A stretch of DNA of 64,000 nt from Callorhinchus milii (Eukaryota): assembly GCF_018977255.1 (NCBI RefSeq), contig NW_024704742.1:125428001-125492000 (forward strand). Reading direction: 5' to 3'. A model generated the notes under the pieces. The model made no database searches and was not told the origin of the DNA. It saw nothing but the letters and a program-made list of their open reading frames with translations. Positions 419 to 57,569 of this stretch are shown piece after piece (the first letter of the stretch is position 1; the number at the start of each line of letters is the position of its first letter). Position numbers and translations under genes: made by a program.

Positions 419-769
419 GCTGAAATATCTAATGCATTAATTTAATCGTTATTCAATGTACTTTGAATGCAGCACTGGTCCCTCCTGACTCAGGAGTGAT
501 GTGATCCAACGCATCTGTATTGAATTAACGTTCAAGCACTGAAGCCTCAGCCCAAGGATTCCAGCTGGGACTGGGATTCCCCCGTATAAACATGTAACAC
601 AGAGGGGCTAGTTTTACCACTTAACGAACAATCCACACAACTTTCATTGGAATTTCGGCTTTGAACAGAGAGGAACAGACTTCATATGACCTTTTTTCAG
701 CAAGTACCTTAGTTTTGCTTGCTGCAGGATCCATTCATGAGTCATTACAACTAGTAGACTGTTTAAAGG

Positions 770-957
770 AAAACAAAACACAAAATACTGCAGATGCTGG
801 AAATCTGAAAATAAAAACAGAAGTAGTTGGGAACACTCAGCAGGTCAGGCCCCAGTTCTGACGAAGGGTCGTGGACCCGAAACGTTGACTCACTTTCCTT
901 TCTCCATAGATGCTGCCTGACCTGCTGAGTGTTTCCAGCTACATTTTGTTTTTGTTT
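770..957. mobile_element. Palindromic Penelope-like terminal-repeat element enclosing a hammerhead motif
   Basis: Inverted arms 808-850 and 915-957 with a perfect 19-bp core AACACTCAGCAGGTCAGGC; related copies at 6698-6790, 27557-27863 and 40580-40660. Confidence 0.7.
854..890 (+). ncRNA. Minimal type I hammerhead ribozyme motif
   Basis: AGTT-CTGACGA-A-GGGTC-GTG-GACCC-GAAA-CGTT-GACT: both core boxes, 5-bp stem II, stem I AGTT/GACT, palindromic ACGT at stem III. Confidence 0.65.
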
Positions 958-1959
958 AAAGGAAAACGCCAGGTTGAATGCTGACATTTAGCTAATTAAA
1001 TATGATTTAACCGAAACCTATCACAGAAGCAACAAGAGCTCCCACTCTGAATTGAGTCTGAACAGATCTGTAGCCAAGAAAACTGGACATGAAAATCTCA
1101 TAGTGTAAACACAGTACAGATCCTTTCTCATTCTGAGTTGTGTGCTATGTACAGTATTTTACACGAGGAACGCTTAATAGTAATGCCCCTGCATACATGA
1201 TCTGCACAGTGTGTATCTGGCAAACTCAATTTTAGCAACATAATGAGACACATCACAATTGTGTGGGAATTGACAGACTCATTAATACTTGGTTACATTT
1301 CACCATCCAGTTGTGAATATTCCTTTAACTTGCTCTGAAACTTGACTATGTGATACGAGCAAAAAAAAAAGGGACATGTAAAGTGGACATAAAGAATAAA
1401 ACACAGAATATGGTTCTGGTTGCCTTTGTATTGATTCTGAGAGTGTCAGAAAGGTCCTTGGTCATGCCCTACCAAAGCATACTAATTTGCTAGATCAGGT
1501 CTGTCAGAATATCGACTGGAGCCAAGAAGCTATGGTGGCAGCTTTTGTGCTCTGTGCAGCAGGGAATCCTGTCTGTGAAATAGGATTATCAGGGGGTCAT
1601 GCAGGCAGTCAAAGTGCGTCCATCACTTTCCTTCTGCTAATGCATTGGGGCGGACTCATGTATGTGATTGAGATGTACTAGACAGGAGGCATGCCAGGGA
1701 GGAAATCAAAGACATGCATGGGGAGCCTGATGGGCTACTGTGAGCCATAAATATGCAGTGAGGAGAGTAGGGCCTTCGAACACATGAAATGTGTTTCCCG
1801 GGTCAGTTTCGTACAATATCTTGGATGTGCTAAGTTTATGTTTAATTTAAAGTTGCAAGCTTTGAATGTAGGCGTTCCCTTTTAGTTGTTGAGGAAAGGG
1901 AATTGTGTTTCTGATAAAGGATCTATACTGTTGAATGTAAAATGTTTCCAATTCTTGTT

Positions 1960-6697: not shown

Positions 6698-6790
6698 AAA
6701 CGAAAAGGAAAACTGCAATGGGCTGGAAATCAAAACAGTACTGCTGGAAATTCTGGGCAGGTCAGTCAGCATCCGATAGAGAGAGTAAGT
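6698..6790. mobile_element. Degraded arm of the hammerhead-bearing palindromic element
   Basis: ACTGCA...GCTGGAAATC...TGCTGGAAATTCTGGGCAGGTCAGTCAGCATC, similar to 770-850. Confidence 0.55.
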
Positions 6791-9575: not shown

Positions 9576-9969
9576 AATAATAATAATAATCCTTGCATTT
9601 GATTTAGCGCTTGTCATGTCTTCTAGACGTCCCAAAGTGCTTCACAGAATAATAATAATAATAATCCTTGCATTTGATAGAGCGCTTTTCACGTCGGGAG
9701 GACGTCCCAAAGCGCTTCACAGAACACACTGTAAAGTGAATTGACTGTATATTTGTGGGCGAACACGGCAGCCAATTGCGCACAGCAATGTCCCACAAAC
9801 AGTCGTAGATTGAAAATGACCAATTTATTATTGTTTTTGGTTTTGGAGGGATTATTATTAGGCTCTGTGTGGAGTAAGGAAACTTGCCCAAGGTTTCACT
9901 CTGCCTGGAATTGAACTCAGGTCTCTCGCTTGCAAAGCGAGTGCTCTAACCACTGAGCTACAGGACTCC
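9576..9969 (-). mobile_element. Full SINE family A (tRNA-Ala-like head) with duplicated 3' tail
   Basis: Minus-strand head GGAGTCCTGTAGCTCAGTGGTTAGAGCACTCGCTTTGCAAGCGAGAGACCTGAGTTCAATTCC (A box, B box, TGC loop); two tails, at 9576-9648 and from 9649. Confidence 0.92.
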
Positions 9970-12699: not shown

Positions 12700-13077
12700 T
12701 AATTGTGATAATCCTTGCATTTGATATAGCGCCTTATCACGTCTTTGAGACATCTCAAAGCGCTTCACAGCATATACTGTAAAGTTAATTGACTGTATAT
12801 TTTATTTGTGGGCGAAACGCAGCAGCCAATTGCGCAGAGCAGTGTCCCACAAACAGTCACGGATTGAGTGACCAATTTATTATTTTATTTTTTTGAATCA
12901 ATTGTTACCCCTGGAAAAGTGATCCGCCAATCAACTAACAACTGGTTTCTACTTACTCCTAGGTAAACAGAGGCGTGTGGAGTAAAGAAACTTGTCCAAT
13001 GTTTCGCCCTGATGGGAATCGAACCCAGGTCTCTCGCTTGCGAGGCGAGTGCTCTAACTGCTAAGCTACAGGACTCC
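12700..13077 (-). mobile_element. Full SINE family A (long form with CORE-like segment)
   Basis: tRNA-like head ending GCTACAGGACTCC, segment CTAGGTAAACAGAGGCGTGTGGAGTAA, and L2-type tail. Confidence 0.92.
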
Positions 13078-18724: not shown

Positions 18725-20502
18725 CTCCATCGCTGCCCCCATCTCCTCACTGAGCCTCACCAGCCCAGCGGGCTAACATTGGCTCGCTGAACACTCCTGT
18801 CCACTCTGAATCTCAGCGTGCGCACATTGGCTGCCGCAATTCACCCGAGCCCATCCCCCCCTATACTCCTTCGACCCTATCTCTTCCTTCTCCCTCACCA
18901 CGACTGTCCACAAACTCAAACCCACCACCTGCTCCCTCAATCCCATCCCCATCTCTCACCTCGTCTCCCAGCTCCACCTTCTGGGCCCCCCTCCTGTCCG
19001 ATGTCATCAACCTCTCCCTGTCCACCAGTTCAGTTCCCACCTGCCTAAAAAGGATGTCATCACTCCCATCCTGAAAAAAACCTTCCCTGGATCCATCCCT
19101 CCTCTACAGCTACCGCCCCATCTCTAACCTTCCATTCCTCTCCAAGGTCCTAGAATGAGTTGTCGCGTCCCAGCTCCGTTCCTTTCTCTCTCGCCATTCC
19201 CTCTTTGAACTCCTCCAATCCGGCTTCCGCACTGCCCACAGCACGGAAACAGCCCTGGTCAAAGTCACTGATGACATTCTGAACATCTGTGATGAGGGCT
19301 CCCTCTGCCTCCTTGTCCTCCTCGACCTCTCTGCCGCCTTCGACACTATCGACCACTCCATCCTCATACACCGCCTCTCCGCTTTATACAATCTTCACGG
19401 ATCTGCCCTTGCCTGGTTCAATTCCTATCTCTCTCACTGTCTCCACTTCGTTGCCGCTAACGGTTTCTCCTCCAGCCCCCACATTGTCACGTCTGGTGTC
19501 CCCCAGGGCTCTGTCCTTGGCCCTCTCCTCTTTAATATCTACATGCTCCCCCTTGGTGACATCATCTGCAGACATAGGGTCAACTTCCATATGTATGCGG
19601 ATGACACCCAACTCTATCTTTCTGCCTCCACCCTCAACTCCAGGACCACTGCTGTCCTGACAGACTGCCTGTCGGACATCAAGTCCTGGATGAGGGTAAA
19701 TTTCTTACAGTTGAATGTGAACAAGACTGAGGCCCTCCTGATTGGCTCGCGCCAATGCCTCAGCACCTCAGGCTCTGGCAACATCAGCCTCCATGTTGCA
19801 CACTACAACTCACCAAGCCAGTCAGGAACCTAGGTGTCTTGTTCGACCCTCAACTGTCTTTTCTCCCCCACATTCAAGCCATGACCCACTCTGCCTTCCC
19901 TCATCTCCGTAACTTCACCGGACTCCGCCACTACCTCACCCCTGAAACTCTTGTTCATGCCTTCATCACCTCCAGGCTCGACTATGCAAACGCCCTACTT
20001 GTCGGCCTTCCCAACTCCTCCCTCCACAGGCTGCAGATAATCCAGAACTCTGCAGCCCATGTCCTCTCCCGCACCAAACTCCATGACCCCATCTCCCCCA
20101 CTCTCGCCCGATTCTACTGTCTCCCTATCCTTCAGAGGATCCAGTTCAAGATCCTGTTCCTCACATATAAAGCCCTCCATGGCCTTGCCCCACCTTACCT
20201 CTGCGACCTCCTAACCCCCTACCAACCCGCCCGTTCCCTCTGTTCAGCCGGCTCTGCCCTGTTCCACGTCCCCCAACCTACTCGCCCCCCTTTGAAATTC
20301 CATCCCCCAGTCACTCCGCCTCACCCCCTCCTTAGCCTCCTTCAAGTCCTGCCTCAAGACCCTCCTCTTCGACCATGCCATCGGCCACCCCGCTTCCCCT
20401 CCCCTCCTTTCCCCCCACAACCCCAGCTCGGGTCTGTCCAGTGCTTTGGGACGTCCTCCTGACGTGAAAGGCACTATACAAATATAATCTTGTTGTTGTT
20501 GT
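18725..20502 (+). mobile_element. L2-clade LINE, 5'-truncated, with a disrupted reverse-transcriptase region and 3' tail
   Basis: Translations YRPISNLPFLSKVLE*, QSGFRTAHSTETAL, DLSAAFDTIDH, GVPQGSVLGPLLF, FHMYADDTQLY, SRLDYANALL; stop codon and frameshifts; tail GCTTTGGGACGTCC...(TTG)n. Confidence 0.95.
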
Positions 20503-25125: not shown

Positions 25126-25249
25126 TTGAAATGCGGCAGCCAATCACACACAGTAGTGTCCCACAAACAGTTATGAATTGAGTGAACAAATTAATATTAT
25201 TTTTTAAAATTTATTTTTGTGTTGAAGGGATTGTTACCCCCTGGAAGGG

Positions 25250-27126
25250 CAATCACTTCATCTCCCTCAACTCCACAATCCCTCTCTTCACTGCTACCCA
25301 ACCCACCTCCATCTCCTACTGTCCCTGGAAAAAAATCTCTCCCCCTTGGAGTCATCTGAACTCCTTCCCCTCTGGGCTTCCTCCCAAAAAGACGTATATT
25401 CCTCGGTCACTCTTCTCCACAGCTCCTTCTCCACCACTCTCAATTCCCTTGCTCCCTTCACTTTCCGAACTATCTCCTACTCAGGAAAACCCCCATGGTG
25501 TACCAGTCACTTCTGCTCCCTTGAAGCACAGGTGCGTGCCGCTGAACGCACCTTGCTTAAATCGAACCTCATGGTCCATCGGCAGATCTGGCTGGACCTT
25601 ATCAAATCTTACCGCTCCACTCTCGCCTCCGCCAAATCATTGTGCTACTCCAAGACAATCTTGGAGGCCAAGGACAATCCCAGGCTCCTCATCTCCATAA
25701 TCAACCAACTCCTCCGGCCACCCTCTCACGTCACGCCCATCTTCACATCCAATGCCAACTGCGAGATCTTGATGGACTTCCTTGAATCCAAAGTTGAGGG
25801 GATCCATTCAGCTGCCCTGCCCTTCCATCTACCACCCCCTCCCCATCTCCTCCTCTCAACCCAGCCCCTACCCATCCCTCCCTCCACACCTTTGAACCTG
25901 TCTCCCCCTCCTCTCTTATCACCACTCAAACCTGCATGAAACCGACCATCTGCTTCCTCTACCCCATCCCGACCCCTCTCCTTACCTCCCAGCTCCACCT
26001 CCTTGCTCCTCTACTCACAGATATCATAAACCGCTCCCTGTCCACTGGTAAAGTTCCCACCCCATTAAAAATGGCCGTCATCAGTCCTATCCTTAAAAAA
26101 CTCAGCCTGGACCCATTCCTGCTCTCAAACTACCGCTCCATCTCCAACCTCCCTTTCCTCTCCAAGGTCATGGAATGAATCGTTGTTTCCCAGCTTCGCT
26201 CATTCCTCTCCCGCCACTCCCTTCACGAACCCCTCCAAGTCCTGGACGAGAGCTAACTTTCTTCAGTTGAACATCAACAAGACCGAGGCCCCCCTGATTG
26301 GCTCCATCAGCGCCTCCACACCTCAAGCGCTGACAGCATCACCATCCATGATTGCACACTCCACCTTACTAAGCCAGTCCAGAACCAATCATTGGTGTCT
26401 TGTTTGACCCTCAACTATCCTTTCTACCCCACATCTATGCCATGACCTGCTCTGCCTTCCCCCACATCCACAACATCACCTGTCTCCGCCACTGTCTCAC
26501 ACCGCAAGCCACCAAAACCCTCATACATACATTCATAACATCGAAGCTTGACTATGCAAACTCCTTGCTTGTCGGCCTCCCCAACTCCTCCCTCCATAGG
26601 CTGCAGATCATCCAAAACTCTGCAGCCTGTGTAATTCTCCCGAACCAGGTTCTGTGACTCTATTACCCCATCGTCGCCCAACTCCACTGGCTTCCCATCA
26701 CTCAGAAGATACAGTTCAAGTTCCTCACCTTCAAAGTCCTCCATGGCCTTGCTCCTCCTACCTCTGCGACCTCCTAAGCCTCTACAATCCTGCCCTCTCC
26801 CTCCGCTCAGCGGGCTCTGGCCTGCTTCACGTACCCCGCCTCGCCCGCACCGCCATTAGTGGGCGGGCCTTCTGTCACTCTTCCCCACCCTCTGGAACTC
26901 CATCCCGCAATCCATCCACCTCGCTCCCTCCCTTGCCTCCTTCAAGACCCATCTCAAGACCCTCCTCTTCAACCCTGCTTTCGATCACCCTGCTTCATCT
27001 CCCGCCCTCCACCCTCCCCAATCCAGACCCCCAGCTCAAGTCTGAAACACTGGTTGTCCAACACCTTGGGACGTCCTCTCAATGCAAAAGGCGCTATACA
27101 AATGTAATTTTGTTGTTGTTGTTGTT
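25250..27126 (+). mobile_element. L2 LINE with internal deletion of the RT core
   Basis: AERTLLKS...ILEAKDNPRLL, NYRSISNLPFLSKVME, then a jump to KSWTRANFLQLN; SKLDYANSLL; (TTG)n tail. Confidence 0.92.
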
Positions 27127-27556
27127 AAGGAACACCTGCAAATTTGTTCCTATTACTTTATTAGAGTAAGTCCTTGTCAGGTCTGCTCTTATCCTCTGAT
27201 GCCCCCACAGCTGCTTCCTCATGATCAGCCAGCTAGTTGCCATGGAAAAAAACTAACAGAACTGACTTTATATACAGTAGTTGGCTTTCTGGCCAATGCC
27301 ATTGAAACAAAGTAATCACTTCAAATAAATTTTAACTCAGCATGTGGGAAACCCAATGTAAGCTACGAATGTACTTTACTCTAAACATTGCTAATTGTGG
27401 TGATAATTAACCCAAGCATTAATACTGTTGTAAAATGGTCAAACCTGGCAAATACATTTTATTCCACTGAGGCAGGTACTGCTGGCAGCAAGCAGTTCTT
27501 TACTACACCAGAGCTGCGATCATTGACAGACCAATAGAAAACTCTACACAAGGATT

Positions 27557-27863
27557 AAACCAAAAACAAAAGTCGCTGTGAACGCTCAGCAGGTCAGGCA
27601 TCATCTATGGAGAAAGGAAAGTAAGTCAACGTTTCGAGTCCAACGACTATTGGCACAGTGGTAACATTCCCGCCTTGGAGTCAGTTAGTTGTGGGTTCAA
27701 GCTACACATCGGGATTTGGAATCGCATAATTAAGCTGATGAAGAGTTGTGGACCCAAAAACGTTGACTCACTTTCCTTTCTCAATACATGCTGCCTGACC
27801 TGCTGATTGTTCCCAGCGACTTCTGTTTTCGTTTTCAGATTTCCAGCATCTGCAGTATTTTGT
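27557..27863. mobile_element. Palindromic hammerhead-bearing element with a SINE head at its centre
   Basis: Inverted arms 27557-27647 and 27735-27863; degenerate hammerhead CTGATGAAGAGTTGTGGACCCAAAAACGTTGACT; centre matches the SINE B head at about 30875. Confidence 0.75.
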
Positions 27864-28299
27864 GGGGGGTTTTCTACTCAAGGCTAGTCAGATGTATAAG
27901 AGTGAAACACTCCCAGTTGCTTTATATTGCAGGGTTCCTGCCGAGGTTGGGACTGCATTACAATGTAAAAGAAGTAAAAATAAGATCACACCATCTGCAC
28001 TCTGCTGTTACACCATAACATTGCTTATAGAAATAGCTCCTCCAATAAGCAGGAGGGCAAGATGGCGGTGGAGACGGGGGGTGGGGAGTGGAGTCTGATA
28101 GCTAAATGAGTCAGGGCAAGGTTTCTCGTCTTCTGTGAGCCAAACAAGACCTTGATATCCTCTCATAAGGTAGGAGCAGAAAACATTGGATATCAAATTA
28201 CATCTGAGTAGAAATGTAGACAAGAAGGAAAGGCTGCACTGCTGCTGGCAGTTTCCAACATCCACAAATTGGCCGAGATAGTAGAATTGCACCCATATT

Positions 28300-28576: not shown

Positions 28577-28891
28577 GGAGTACTGTAGCTCAGAGGTTAG
28601 AGCACTCGCCTTGCAAGCAAGACACCTGGGTTCAATTCCGGGCTGGGCAAAATCTTGGGCAAGTTTCCTTACTCCACACGTCTAATAATAATCCCTCCAA
28701 AACAAAACAATAATAAATTGGTCATTTTCAATCCACGACTGTTTGTGGGACACTGCTGTGCGCAATTGGCTGCCGCGTTTCGCCCACAAATATACAGTCG
28801 ATTCACTTTACAGCATATTCTGTGAAGCGCTTTGAGACATCTAGAAGACGTGAAAAATGCTATGTCAAATGCAAGGATTATTATTATTATT
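28577..28891 (+). mobile_element. Full SINE family A (short form)
   Basis: GGAGTACTGTAGCTCAGAGGTTAGAGCAC...GGTTCAATTCC head, body, and (ATT)n tail. Confidence 0.92.
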
Positions 28892-30873: not shown

Positions 30874-31350
30874 CAACAACTATTGGTGCAGTGGTAACAT
30901 TCCTGCCTTGGAGTCAGAAGGTTGTGGGTTCAAGCTCTACATAGGCACTTGGAGTCACATAGTCCCATCTGCCTGTTCAGATGGATGTTAAAGATCCCAT
31001 AGCACTATTTGAAAAGAGACGGGAGTTTCTCCCAGTGTCCTGGCCAACAATTCCCCAAATAAAATAAGTTACTCACTCCATGGCTGTTTGTGGGACATTG
31101 CTGTATGCAACTGGCTGCTGTCACCCATAAAATAAAAGATGCACGGATTATTATTATAATAATAATAATAATCTTTGCATTTGATATAGTGCCTTTTCAC
31201 GTCTTCTAGATGTCTCAAAGCGCGTCACAGAAAATACTGTAAAGTGAATTGGCTGTATATTTTATGGGCGAAACACGGCTGCCAGTTGCACACAGCAGTG
31301 TCCCACAAACAGCCATGGAGTGAGTAACCTATTTTATTTGGGGGATTGTA
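30874..31350. mobile_element. Tail-to-tail SINE pair (plus-strand B 30874-31157; minus-strand 31158-31350)
   Basis: Head GCAGTGGTAAC...GGGTTCAAG; shared ATT/AAT junction; inverted body copies. Confidence 0.85.
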
Positions 31351-36732: not shown

Positions 36733-37925
36733 AACAATAACAACAACAACAACAAAATTACATTTATAGAGCGCCTTTCACAACGGGAGGATGTCCCAAG
36801 GCGTTGGACAGTCAGGGGTCAGGACCCAAGCATGGGGGAGGGGTGGGGTAGGGGTGAGGGAAGGCAGAGAGGTGGGAGGATGACTGAAGTCACGATTGAA
36901 GAGGAGGGTCTTGAGACCAGCCTTGAAGGAAGCAAAAGAGGAAGCAAGGCAAAGGGACTGTGGGATGGAGTTCCAGAGTGTGGGGGCAGAGAGGCTGAAA
37001 GCTCGGCCACCAATGGTAGGGCGGGTCAAGTGGGAGACATGGAGCAGGCCGGAGCCCACTGAATGGAGGCAGTGGGCAGGTTGGTAGGGAGTTAACAGGT
37101 CAGAAAGGTATGAAGGGGCAAGGCCATGGATGGCCTTGAAAGTAAGGACAAGGATCTTAAACACGATCCTCTGAGGGATGGGGAGCCAGTGGAATCGGGC
37201 AAGGGTGGGAATGATGGGGTCATGGAGTCTGGTGCACGAGAGTACACAAGCTGCAGAGTTTTGGATGAGCTGTAGCCTGTGAAGGGATGCGTTGGGAAGG
37301 CCGATGAGGAAGGAATTTCCATAATCAAGCCTTGATGTGACGAATGCGTGGTTAAGGGTTTCAGCAGCCTGAGGGGTGAGGCAGTGGCGGAGTCTGGCAA
37401 TGTTGTGGAGGTGGTGGTAGACAGTTCTGGTCATGGCGTGGATGTGGGGGAGAAAGGACAGTTCAGGGTCAAACATGACACCCAGGTTCCTGACTGGCTT
37501 AGTGAGGTTGAGAGTGCAGCTGCCAGCGGCCGAGATGCGGAGGCCTGGCGCGAGCCAATCAGAAAGGCCTCGGTCTTGCTGACGTTCAGCTGGAGAAAGT
37601 TGTCCCTCTTCCAGGACTTGATGTCGGACAGGCAGTTGGTCAGAACGCCAGTAGTCTCCGAGTTGAGGATGGAGGCAGAGAGATAGAGTTGGCTGTTATC
37701 CGCATACATGTGGAAATTTAGCCCATGTCTGCGGATGATGTCGCCAGGGGGAGCATGTAGAGGGTGAAAAGGAGGGGACCGAGGACAGAGCCCTGAGGAA
37801 CACAGTATGAGACGGTGTGGGGGCTGGAGGAGAAGCTGTTAGCTGAGATAAAGTGGTAGCGGTCTGAAAGGTAGGACTTGAACCAGTCAAGGACAGAAAC
37901 TTGAAAGTTGAGATGGGAGGAGAGG
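36733..37925 (-). mobile_element. L2 LINE 3' portion
   Basis: Minus ORFs VPQGSVLGPLLF, MYADNSQLY, TSRLDYGNS, LWNSIP; (AAC)n tail at about 36733-36755. Confidence 0.93.
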
Positions 37926-38804
37926 CAGTGGTTACCCCGCGTTAAGGGCACTATATAAATGAAAGTGTTATCATTCTTCTATTGATGCAAGGATTATTAT
38001 AAGATTATTAGTATGCTATTTTTTAGACAAATTTAGAGATGTCCTACAAGAGATGCACCTTAAAATGTCTTCCAGCTTTCTGTTGTTTGGTGCCTCTTCC
38101 ACAGTTCAGTACCCAAACAGGCTCAATATCAGCATGAATCAGCCTTTACTGTATGAATGGCAGAGTTTTACAGCCTATTTGTGCAGCTAGTATCCCAGTT
38201 TTAGTCCATGAATTCAGAGAGACTTTAAGACAGAAAATTTGTTCAAGGAACAGCATGCCTGACACCTGCAGGAAGGAAGCCTACAGAAACAATACAGCAG
38301 CAATCACCTTACTTAAAGAAGGAGAAGAACCTCAGGTGTCTTTTTTCAGTACAAATTAACCACCCGCATATATTAATATGAAAATGAAGTACATATCTTC
38401 GACTCCATCAGTCACTTTCCACCCTCCCACCCAAAGCTGCCACTGCACCAGGAGCCACTCCGTTGATGTGGGATGTAGAGACTGTATGCATTGGGCAGCA
38501 ATTGCATTGGATGAGATAGAAGATGGTGATTTGGATTAGCCTGACTGGTGACCCAGAGGCATTTGAGTTGAGAATATCTGACCTGGTTTAGTACTGCTAT
38601 GTACTGAGCCAGCACTAAATCTCCCTGGTTGCATGGCTTCTGTTTTGGCAGCTAGGCAAGTCTGAGATACAAATGGCAGGTAAAAGCTGCATTGTCATAT
38701 GTGTCATCCTACAGATGAGATGTTCACTTACACAATACAAAATACAATTTGAGGCGTCACCCCGACTTGAAAGGTGCTGTATTAAATGTATTATTATTAT
38801 TACA

Positions 38805-40420: not shown

Positions 40421-41597
40421 TAGTAAGCCCCCCACATCAGAACTACAAACTCACATTGTGATCCTACAATGTAAGTTTGAAGTCCTGATATGGGGCTTAC
40501 TGGAGAGAAACTTATAAATGTCTGTCACCTGTCCTCCTGTGTTTCTGACCTGTGTTAGATTGACCACATAGAATATGAAACCTGCTGGAAATCCACAGGA
40601 AATCAAGAAGCCCCTGAAAGAGAAGGACAGGTTAATATTCCATCATGACCCTTCATCACAAATGAATGTCAGTATGCAGAATCCCCAATATAGATACAAG
40701 TGCATGGACAGAAAAAAGAATTGTAAACCACTATCACCAATTATTTTTGTTTCTCAGAAGGTAATTTGCTGACCAGGAAGCTGAGGAAGGTAACAAAGTG
40801 CTGTGATGTACAGCTAAGTTGAGAGCAAGCTCTTCAAGTAAGTTAAGCTGGTGTAAGCTCTTTATTTCTGGTATTAGAAAAGGTAGAGTGCTGGAGACTA
40901 GCAAGTACCTGCTCAGCTAGGGATGATCCATGACACAGAACAGCTTAGAGAAGGAAGTAGAAAAAAATAACAAATCCTTAAAAGATGGAATCAACCTTTT
41001 CGGATTGACAATTCAAGAACGTTGAAAAAATTAAAAGACTGTATGTATGGGTTGTTTTAAGATGAAATATTCACAGATATCCCAAACAGCATTGTTCAGT
41101 GCTGTAGGCTTTTTTTTAGTTTATGGCTGTTTTTTAAATAGAAATGATAATTTTATTCACCAGCACAATGTTGTGAATAGCACAATAGTTAAGAAAAAAT
41201 ATCATAAATGATAAGTGTTGTCATAATCCATGGATTTTTCTTTGGTCAACCTGACACATGTGGAAACCCATTCAATACAATATAATTTACATTTATTTAG
41301 CGCCTTTCATGTCCCAATATTCTTTAAACCCATCACTATGCTGAAGAATATCGAAACCAGACTAAGTTCCACTTATGTACATCAAGTACACATGAAAATT
41401 TCCCTGTCTCTTATGGGAGGACAAAGGTGTAATTATTTTTATGACTCAGAAAATTGTCTGTAGTCTTGGTCTGCTTTAGTAATTCATGAATGGATTCACA
41501 ATGTTCAAGCTTCAGACAGACAAGAAAGACTGGGTAAATTATAAGAAAAAATTCCTCATCCCAACATACCTAATTCTAACAGTTTTTTTTAACTTTT

Positions 41598-46793: not shown

Positions 46794-47158
46794 AATAATA
46801 ATAATCATCCTTGCATTTGTTATAGCATTTGATCTTAAAGCTCTTCACGGAATATACTGTAAAGTGAATTGACTGTTTATTTTGTGGGCAAAACCCAGGA
46901 ACCAATTGTGCACAGCACTATCCCACAACCAGTCGTGGATTGAAGTGACCAATTTATTATTATTATTATTTATTTGAAGGAATTATTACCACCGGAAAGT
47001 CGATCCGTCAATTAACTAACAACCATGTTCCTACTTACTCCTAGGTAAACAGAGGCGTGTGGAGTAAAGAAACTTCCCAACATTTTGCCCTGCCAGGGAT
47101 CGAACCCAGGTCTCTTGCTTGCAAAGCGACTGCTCTAACCACTGAGCAACAAGAGTCC
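46794..47158 (-). mobile_element. Full SINE family A (long form)
   Basis: GGGATCGAACCCAGGTCTCTTGCTTGCAAAGCG head, CORE-like segment and tail. Confidence 0.9.
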
Positions 47159-53913: not shown

Positions 53914-54290
53914 GGAGTCCTGTAGCTTAGCTTAGCACTCGCCTTGCAAACGAGAGGAACTGGGTTCAATTCCCGGCAGTGCGAAATGTTGGGCAAGTTT
54001 CCTAACTCCACACGCCTCTGTTTTCTTAGCAGTAAGTAGGAACCCAGTTGTTAGTCGATTGGCAGATCGCTTTTCTGAGCGTAATAATTCTTTCAAAAAT
54101 AAATAAATAATAATTTGGTCACTTAATCCATGACTGTTTATGGGACATTGCTGTGCGTAATTGGCTGCCGCATTTCGCCCAAAAAATATACAGTCAATTT
54201 ACTTTACAGTATATTCTGCGAAGCGCTTTGAAACGCTAGAAGACATGATAAGGCGATAATAAATGATATTACAATATCAAATGTAAGGAT
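53914..54290 (+). mobile_element. Full SINE family A (long form)
   Basis: GGAGTCCTGTAGC...GGGTTCAATTCC, TTGGGCAAGTT...GCCTCTGTTT and tail. Confidence 0.9.
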
Positions 54291-54475
54291 TGTGTGTTTC
54301 AAAATACAAGGATTATTGTAGTATTTCACATCCAGATGACAACAACAATAACAACGTTAATTTATATGGTGCCTTCAGGCGGGAGAGAATCTCAGAGTGC
54401 ATAACAGTGGTGGAGTTTGACACTGAGTCGAGGAGAATGGGGAGTGTTGCAAAGCACTTCATAGGATTTACTGAA

Positions 54476-55258
54476 ACCCACCCTCGATCCCTCTAATCTG
54501 TTACACCACTGTCCCATTTCCAACCTACCTTTCCTTGCCAAAGTCCTGGAACGCATTGTTGCAGGTCAACTGTGGACACATCTCTCCCTCCACGCCCTCC
54601 TCGAGCCCCTGCGGTCTGGTTTTTGCCCTGCCCACAGCACAGATACAGCGCTTGTCAAAGTCACAAAAAACGTGCTCTCTATCTGTGACCTCTGCCTCCT
54701 CGTACTCCTGTTTGTCAACTCCTGCCTGGATTACTCAAACACACTCCTCGCTGGTCTCCCCAGCTCCACTATTCAAAAGATCCAGCTATTCAGAACTCTG
54801 CCGCCCGCATACTGATCCAGACCAAACTCTGTACCCACATCTCACCAGTTCTGGCCAGGCTCCACTTGTTCTCCATCACCAAATGGATCGACTTCAAGAT
54901 GCTCAAACTCGTGTTCAAATCCCTTCCTTCACTCTATGGCACCTCCCTACCTCTCCGACCTCCTCACTCCCCAATCCACCATCCGGCACCTCCTGCTCAT
55001 CCCTCGCTCCCTCAGTCCCATCATCAGAGGTCGCGCTTTCAGCCACTACACCCCAAAACTCTGGAACACTCTCCCTCAATCCCCCCGCCTTGCCCCCTCT
55101 CTCCCTCTTTTTAAGTACTGCCTGAAAACCTTCCTCTTCGACCGTGCTTATGGCCACCACCCTACTGCCCGGCTCAGAATCAGGCTCTACCACTGTTAAG
55201 CGTTCTGAGACGTATCCCTGCATGGAGGGCACCATATAAGTGCAAGTTGTTATTGTTA
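54476..55258 (+). mobile_element. Internally deleted L2 LINE
   Basis: CCCATTTCCAACCTACCTTTCCTTGCCAAAGTCCTGGAA (PISNLPFLAKVLE), RAFSHYTPKLWNTLP and L2 tail. Confidence 0.85.
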
Positions 55259-56824: not shown

Positions 56825-57480
56825 AACAACAACAACTTGCACTTATATAACGCCCTCCACGCAGGGTAGCATCTCAGAATGCTTAAAAGTGGCAGAGCCG
56901 GGGTGGGAGGTGATCGTAAGCATGGTCGAAAAGGAAGGTTTTCAGGCGGGACTTAAAAAAGGGGACAGAGGGGATAAGGCGGAGGGATTGAGGGAGAGTT
57001 TTCTAGAGTTTCAGGGTGTAGTGGCTGAAAGCGTGACCTCCGATAGTAGTGCAGAGAAGTAGGAAGGTGCCAGGGAGTGGATGGCGTGGTTAACTGTGTT
57101 GAATGGGGCAGAGAGATCCAGGAGGATGAGGAGGCAGAGGGAGCCCTGGTCACTGATAGAGAGGACTTTGACAAGTGCTGTCTCTGTGCTCTGGGCAGGG
57201 CGAAAACCAGACTGCAGGGGCTCGAGGAGGGAGAGGTGTGACCGAAGTTGACCTGTAACAATGCATTCCAGGACTTTAGCAAGGAAGAGTAGGTTGGAAG
57301 TGGGATGGTAATGTGAGAGATTAGAGGGATCAAGGGTTAGCTTTTTGAGGATGGGTGAGATAACAGCGTTTTTTAGAGGGGAGTGGAACCGAGCCTGGGG
57401 ATAGAGACTGGTTGACCAGCAGGGGGGAGAGGATGGGGAGTTGAGTGACCAGCAGCTGGGTGAGGAGGGGGTTGTGGCAG
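56825..57480 (-). mobile_element. Internally deleted L2 LINE
   Basis: Reverse complement closely matches 54476-55258; (AAC)n tail at about 56825. Confidence 0.85.
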
Positions 57481-57569
57481 CAGTTGGTGAACTTCACCTG
57501 CTGCCAGAAAACCAGCGAAGTTCAGACCAGTTTGGATGTGTTCCACAACCATTCCAAGATTTATTATGC

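Follow-up and report, generated by a model that had tools for sequence, protein, structure and literature searches.

Penelope-like elements (PLEs) of metazoans carry minimal hammerhead ribozymes (min-HHRs), which Cervera and De la Pena (2014, PMC4209133) describe as type I motifs that lack loop III and have a palindromic 15.2-16.2 segment, one extra base between positions 9 and 10.1, a G10.1-C11.1 pair and a 4-bp helix I. In that description the motifs are mostly solitary and dispersed, and they sometimes occur as opposite-strand pairs 100-700 bp apart. Insertions of endonuclease-positive PLEs, as presented for Penelope/Poseidon, Neptune and Nematis (Craig et al. 2021, PMC8557442; PMC3846280; Frangieh et al. 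2024, PMC11167929), are 5'-truncated with an adjacent inverted copy, lie in an AT-rich target with a target duplication, bear a 30-40-nt tail at one end, and have, in the terminal repeat, an ATG that falls inside the ribozyme or downstream of it. The accounts in PMC8557442 and PMC8969392 place a truncated inverted copy at the 5' end and find the 30-40-bp tail often at one end only. Rotifer PLEs, as described in PMC3846280, have inverted pLTRs and target-site duplications of 8-10 bp, and their pLTR holds the first 12 codons of the ORF, or 22 with the tail. Animal non-LTR retrozymes, in the preprint that presents them (bioRxiv 10.64898/2026.07.22.740005), are non-coding, derived from PLE pLTRs and equipped with a type I hammerhead. 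They form tandem head-to-tail units with a ribozyme in each, solo 'monomer' derivatives of them are described, and they are present in the one cartilaginous fish sampled.

The kind of insertion that we report here (locus A) is already known. We read positions 775-952 of the window, the 64-kb stretch of DNA that was analysed, as very probably a single, old and heavily truncated insertion of the pLTR of an endonuclease-bearing PLE, whose hammerhead is its usual motif, present here as a passenger and most likely not cutting in vivo. Locus A shares with the min-HHRs of PMC4209133 all the structural features listed above and their solitary occurrence, and differs in a helix II of 5 bp against 7-8 in the Schistosoma families, in that the parent ORF was not found in the window, and in belonging to a family that is not named in the text of that paper accessible to us. 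The 5' truncation, the adjacent inverted copy, the one-sided tail, the target duplication, the AT-rich target and the ATG are those of endonuclease-positive PLE insertions; by comparison, locus A is extremely short (178 bp, without an ORF body) and its duplication measures up to 15 nt, or 6 less the microhomologies at the ends, against the rotifer value. With the non-LTR retrozymes it has in common its non-coding nature, a type I hammerhead and derivation from a PLE pLTR, whereas it has one motif and head-to-head arms.

The DNA around the insert is about 40% GC and contains many tRNA-like repeat heads and pieces of LINE reverse transcriptase (RT), and we therefore regard the window as vertebrate-type non-coding DNA, with repeats that presumably resemble those of cartilaginous fish. 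Five Rfam tRNA matches of 34-56 bits (9896-9967, 13004-13075, 28579-28650, 47089-47153 and 53916-53984), closely similar and with mismatched stems, appear to be the heads of a single tRNA-derived SINE family. A SINE-tail-like repeat tail of ~170 nt occurs dozens of times in the window, and at 31047-31349 two SINE-tail-like repeats lie inverted and close together (88% over 92 nt). Broken LINE RT pieces with strong GC skew occupy 19159-20462, 25226-27169, 36778-37978, 54465-55199 and 56953-57493 and are unrelated to the hammerhead; a Pfam search of the 248 window frames of at least 62 aa gave four RVT_1 matches (at 19.2, 37.4-38.0 and 57.0 kb). From their YADD motif context we take these matches to be of L2/CR1 type, and the pieces are L2/CR1-like. 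Two further Pfam matches in the same frames were below threshold and were rejected as chance.

Two copies of the end of one repeat family lie head to head at locus A (Table 1). The first-pass annotation had described inverted arms of ~43 bp; the arms are indeed present (809-850 and 915-957, differing by 4 substitutions and 1 indel over 43 aligned columns), and the palindromic stretch folds at z = -8.9, but the symmetry does not hold, since the left arm runs 38 unpaired bases further, at 771-808. Read on the minus strand, the left part corresponds to the final ~80 bases of the family. Of these, 42 mirror the right arm; the other 38, absent there, match the copy at 27793-27864 at its 3' end with 93% identity. 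The forward copy has 87-89% identity with the family copies at 27.5-27.9 kb, ends at the same family point as the copy at 27555-27647, and overlaps the left inverted copy by 2 nt (GC). The insert is bounded by an exact 15-nt direct repeat (760-774 and 953-967) that the annotation did not contain; a 15/15 match was seen in 0 of 3000 random position pairs. Because the outer ends of the element overlap this repeat by 4 and 5 bases (771-774 and 953-957), the true stagger is 6-15 nt.

Table 1. Features of locus A and of the other family copies in the 64-kb window.
Feature	Position	Strand	Evidence
Target-site duplication, left copy, at most 15 nt; 771-774 also fits element end	760..774	+	Exact repeat; present once at the empty site (X5, X6)
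38-nt tail, extreme 3' end of the family, on this arm only; 5-bp hairpin	771..808	-	Match to copy 27793-27864, loose contig ends, fold
Inverted, strongly 5'-truncated second family end (left arm), without ribozyme	809..850	-	Reverse complement of 915-957
Head-to-head junction, 2-nt overlap GC	849..850	.	Upstream continuation in contigs; left arm ends at 850
5'-truncated family end in forward orientation, resembling a pLTR, without tail; 953-957 compatible with target repeat as well	849..957	+	Copies at 27.5-27.9 kb
Minimal type I hammerhead, predicted cut 886/887	854..890	+	Sequence reading, pattern search, descriptor scan
Branch-point-like YTNAY (A888, 21 nt before AG), pyrimidine tract, AG; possible 3' end of parent 5'-UTR intron	885..909	+	Acceptor filter
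ATG with 16 open codons, perhaps the start of the parent ORF	910..957	+	Translation; analogy with the rotifer elements described in PMC3846280
Target-site duplication, right copy	953..967	+	Direct repeat, contigs, random pairs
Older diverged relative D, no ribozyme remaining	6722..6788	-	nhmmer, E 7.7e-6
Family copy C, tailless, truncated inside stem II, without CUGANGA	27555..27647	-	Sequence comparison, nhmmer
Spacer between C and B, piece of another repeat	27641..27738	+	27641-27728 84% identical to 30874-30961
Family copy B, with tail; ribozyme disrupted by loss of G12 and of the stem I 5' strand, an additional A and mismatches in stem II	27735..27872	+	
Probable older relative E, decayed hammerhead-like stretch, then YTNAY, pyrimidine tract, AG	40584..40664	-	Weak local match

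As read from the sequence, the forward copy contains a complete minimal type I hammerhead with an intact core. Stem I (854-857/887-890) has 4 bp, with one G-U pair adjoining the cleavage site; CUGACGA spans 858-864 and is followed by an unpaired extra A (865); stem II (866-870/874-878) has 5 bp and a 3-nt loop, G10.1-C11.1 being 866/878; GAAA lies at 879-882 and the UH core at 885-886, with U17 at 886. ACGU at 882-885 is its own reverse complement, and helix III is possible only as a dimer. The predicted scissile bond is 886/887, after GUU. The first-pass annotation had named the same cores, stems, extra A and self-complementary ACGU, all of which we found on re-reading, and its cleavage after GUU at 886 agrees with our bond as a position in the sequence. 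Its view of the motif as a Penelope-type minimal hammerhead with a palindromic stem III is borne out by the core, the extra A, G10.1-C11.1 and the palindrome. It had also likened the extra A to viroid hammerheads; A865 is there, but the PLE motif is the better parallel, going by the description in PMC4209133.

A minimal-hammerhead descriptor run on both strands of the 64 kb gave 854-890 as its single match. The same descriptor found a mean of 0.013 matches per window in 300 dinucleotide shuffles, and 0 with equally long stems; a plain pattern search of the window gave 1 match against 0.01 expected. The Rfam hammerhead families have the catalytic core in common with 854-890, yet the Infernal search proposed in the annotation did not recover it: no hammerhead model matched at the gathering score anywhere in the window, and the 8 weak matches obtained for 600-1100 at E up to 10 included no hammerhead.

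Contigs of four public sequencing runs (X1, X5, X6 and X17, out of 24 listed) were aligned to the window. X1 is possibly the source sample, and so not independent; it bridges both insert junctions with 0 differences. X5 and X6 come from two related organisms, in each of which one contig spans 538-774 and resumes 3 letters later at 972, so that 775-967, comprising the insert and one repeat copy, is absent and the orthologous site is empty. The flanks of this site differ from the window by 10-15% in the related organisms (36 of 237 and 10 of 97 letters in X5). Given the empty site and the target duplication, locus A is a lineage-specific insertion. Contigs of X17, possibly RNA, cover the repeat and not the unique flanks 520-744 and 970-1240, and have no bearing on expression.

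The family of 849-957 is abundant in all three organisms. Matching contigs numbered 12,298 in X1, 26,225 in X5, 26,497 in X6 and 4,229 in X17 (contig counts, not copy numbers), and nearly all contig depth lies on 770-944, the unique flanks being represented by single contigs. Loose contig ends accumulate before 771-775 in all four runs. Upstream of 849, shared family sequence continues in 95, 211, 279 and 33 contigs of X1, X5, X6 and X17 (agreement 0.59-0.78, 30 nt visible). Because this sequence is found in four of four runs, the family must be longer, and the copy at 849-957 is 5'-truncated. The upstream family motif is absent from the 64-kb window at up to 3 mismatches. A 21-nt family pattern had 0 loci in viral contigs; six metagenome loci of this pattern were rejected as chance, being 60-66% GC, microbial-looking and matched over 21-31 bases only. 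At 808 we observed a one-base length variant of an A-run in 89 X1 contigs (~12% of depth) and at ~5% in X5 and X6.

Within the window, nhmmer found five family segments at three loci (E < 1e-5), and a weak sixth lies at 40584-40664, in line with the four or more remnants counted in the annotation. This sixth segment had a local score of 44, the best tile outside loci A-D (the next unrelated tile scored 36), and was absent from the nhmmer results at E 10. Among these copies the whole ribozyme is found at locus A only, the motif being broken in two of the three clear copies that overlap it (three copies, window only). The copies start at different points (the equivalents of 849, 858 and 868) and have two common 3' ends. 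An inverted copy adjoins the 5' end at both of the two-armed loci in the window, and at both exactly one arm bears the 38-nt tail, with identical end points; the tailed arm is the minus copy at locus A and the plus copy at B/C. At the latter locus (27555-27872) a ~90-nt fragment of a different repeat separates the minus copy, which lacks the tail, from the tailed plus copy, giving a junction unlike that of locus A, and the pair is flanked by a 10/11 direct repeat (27543-27553/27873-27883; 12 of 3000 by chance). The spacer is presumably SINE-head-like, and its match to 30874-30961 reaches a few bases beyond the usual start of the repeat head. Both joins of 27543-27883 show short overlaps, which suggests that the template was switched in the course of insertion or that the piece was copied from the locus at a distance of 3.2 kb.

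Joints between the two orientations also vary among copies elsewhere. In X5, left-arm position 810 is joined to 855, 856, 857, 864, 873, 880, 903, 910 or 912 (among the matches listed, 12 of 179). A left boundary near 855 with unrelated flanks is frequent, occurring in 143, 245 and 313 contigs of three of the four runs (agreement 0.34-0.36). A joint between an inverted arm ending at 894 and a forward copy from 854-855 recurs in X5 and X6, in 6-10 contigs each. The 855 hot spot may owe its origin to microhomology near stem I, given that the three bases at 854-856 and those at 892-894 are reverse complements of each other.

PLE membership is argued from the architecture and the motif, since no RT or GIY-YIG frame is linked to the family. 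The annotation had proposed a search for a linked GIY-YIG/RT Penelope ORF. None was found in the window: the 248 frames gave 0 GIY-YIG matches in Pfam, and none is expected in a 178-bp stub. A protein search with the 40-aa frame that holds the candidate start, which is a weak test, gave one candidate and none at E <= 10. By the tandem arrangement that defines retrozymes, which the annotation had also named, locus A is not one of them, as the 64 kb hold one intact motif, the arms are inverted rather than in tandem, and the left arm lacks the motif. Our literature search found no paper naming the 849-957 family (repeat libraries lay outside the search), and the only match for Penelope hammerheads in sharks used 'shark' for a shape.

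A different reading of these data is that a ~190-bp palindromic unit, or a short RNA starting at ~855, constitutes a non-autonomous mobile element with a life cycle of its own, for which a PLE provides mobility in trans. The frequent 855 boundary and the recurring 854-855/894 joints agree with this reading, as do the lack of an ORF in the searches just described and the length variant at 808, which would put the candidate ORF start out of frame; non-autonomous PLE derivatives are moreover described in the accounts of PMC8557442 and bioRxiv 2026.07.22.740005. We nevertheless consider it unlikely, because the junctions vary among copies and between the two window loci, the family runs on upstream of 849 with the locus A copy starting inside that sequence, and the tailed arm is not the same at loci A and B/C. 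The upstream extension and the variable junctions indicate instead that the palindrome was made at insertion. What survives of the annotation's non-autonomous, ribozyme-bearing family is thus a retro-inserted repeat family with several remnants in the window, and not the ~190-bp palindrome as the element itself. Inverted arms together with a target duplication could also point to a miniature inverted-repeat or fold-back DNA transposon whose hammerhead-like middle is coincidental. This is barely credible for locus A, where the arms are neither terminal nor equal, given the 38-nt overhang, and are both internal pieces of one linear family also found unpaired; the variable junctions contradict fixed terminal inverted repeats, and the motif is expected by chance at the 0.013 per window given above.

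For the truncated PLE end that we favour, a route of insertion can be proposed from PLE biochemistry. An RT/GIY-YIG protein would have nicked both strands of the AT-rich site 6-15 nt apart, and two cDNAs would have been primed from opposite strands, from the end region of the uncut element RNA. One cDNA may have begun at an outer start site, so as to include the tail, and the other at an inner site 38 nt earlier; they would have stopped after ~80 and 105-109 nt and been joined head to head via the 2-nt overlap, the longer one having by chance reached a little beyond the ribozyme. The hammerhead of the parent element probably cleaves tandem transcripts, either as a dimer or aided by protein. 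The model is the anole Poseidon protein, which, in the work reported in PMC11167929, cuts and extends both strands of AT-rich DNA and uses mainly uncut RNA, with two internal RT start sites bounding the tail; the hammerhead of that element cuts only with the protein present. The insertion, truncation, inversion and one-sided tail at locus A are observed directly, while for the enzyme and the order of the steps we infer from analogy. Both locus A arms have T940, against a G in the loose-end consensus of X1/X17 as well as in copies B and C, and this suggests one template lineage for both arms. Position 887 is not among the loose ends listed (24 of 931), so we see no sign there of cleaved RNA as the usual template. 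The inverted arms might also have arisen by self-priming on an antisense template, an alternative published for PLE inversions (discussed in PMC3846280).

Judged by sequence alone, this copy may be capable of cleavage in vitro. Its predicted folds, which speak against the active form, come from energy models that for hammerheads leave out core tertiary contacts and protein help. In the isolated 37-mer, stem I forms with probability 0.54-0.78 and stem II with more than 0.98, but in the most stable fold core bases 860-863 are also paired, with 883-886. Within the whole insert the pairing probabilities drop to 0.02 for stem I and 0.07 for stem II. Two separately folded 37-mers (-21.6 kcal/mol together) and the most stable alternative dimer (-28.3) are both predicted to be favoured over the double-hammerhead dimer (-14.5). 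Assuming the ~6% divergence per arm, the 15 core bases would remain intact with p = 0.41 and all 37 with p = 0.11 (rough values that ignore CpG, for a copy that was chosen because it is intact), so that the intact core is within neutral expectation. All 4 CpG of the motif are kept at 854-890, where copy B has lost 3 of 4, and the locus A motif is in this respect slightly more intact than average.

The intact core, stems and CpG, and the formation of both stems in the isolated 37-mer, are what one would expect of a working ribozyme maintained by selection that cleaves a host transcript through trans-dimers or aided by a chaperone. Such a role is very unlikely here: the insertion is lineage-specific, no partner motif occurs in 64 kb, the best 37-mer fold occupies the core, and the intactness needs no selection. 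Published activities point the same way. The reports of PMC4209133 and PMC6765202 give no monomer activity and low dimer activity for min-HHRs, one of nine Xenopus dimers cleaved in vitro and the other eight did not (data of bioRxiv 2026.07.22.740005), and for the anole element the results in PMC11167929 include no RNA-seq ends at the hammerhead site. The hammerhead at 854-890 is therefore most likely a solitary passenger that, judging from these models, is decaying neutrally and would not cleave in vivo.

The surroundings of the cleavage site resemble a splice acceptor (Table 1). The scissile bond falls inside the YTNAY motif, which a stem I strand of the ribozyme also covers, and the AG is directly followed by the ATG at 910. 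A simple acceptor filter passes 22 of 8267 AG sites in the window, this one included, while shuffles give 12.5 passing sites, 0.43 of which are then followed by ATG. The same order of parts recurs in copy C and, weakly, in the 40.6-kb relative. We saw no donor site, splice junction or ORF to go with it. Where the tail begins, each of the two tailed copies has another acceptor-like AG (805, minus strand; 27838, plus strand), and T-richness alone may for this reason explain the acceptor look. PLEs hold a 5'-UTR intron whose role is called obscure in the accounts of PMC2377424 and PMC8557442, and in Drosophila virilis the intron end abuts helix I, according to PMC4209133. From the sequence it is conceivable, though we give it little chance, that the parent ribozyme sits at the 3' end of such an intron and that folding and cutting of the hammerhead and recognition by the spliceosome would exclude each other, making a switch between spliced mRNA and an unspliced, intron-retaining template. 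Our literature search found no statement of an overlap between branch point or acceptor and the cleavage site of a PLE hammerhead.

As such, locus A is of little weight, being one more decayed PLE end among very many. It is a clean specimen nonetheless, with an empty site, a 15-nt duplication with end overlaps of 4-5 nt, and a tailed and tailless pair of copies, and it lets the two-start, two-strand priming model of PLE insertion be read from a genome. If the branch-point overlap is functional, PLE hammerheads and intron retention would both acquire a role that can be tested, and a splice-or-cut switch, if true, would join two puzzles of these elements: what the hammerhead does and why the intron is retained.
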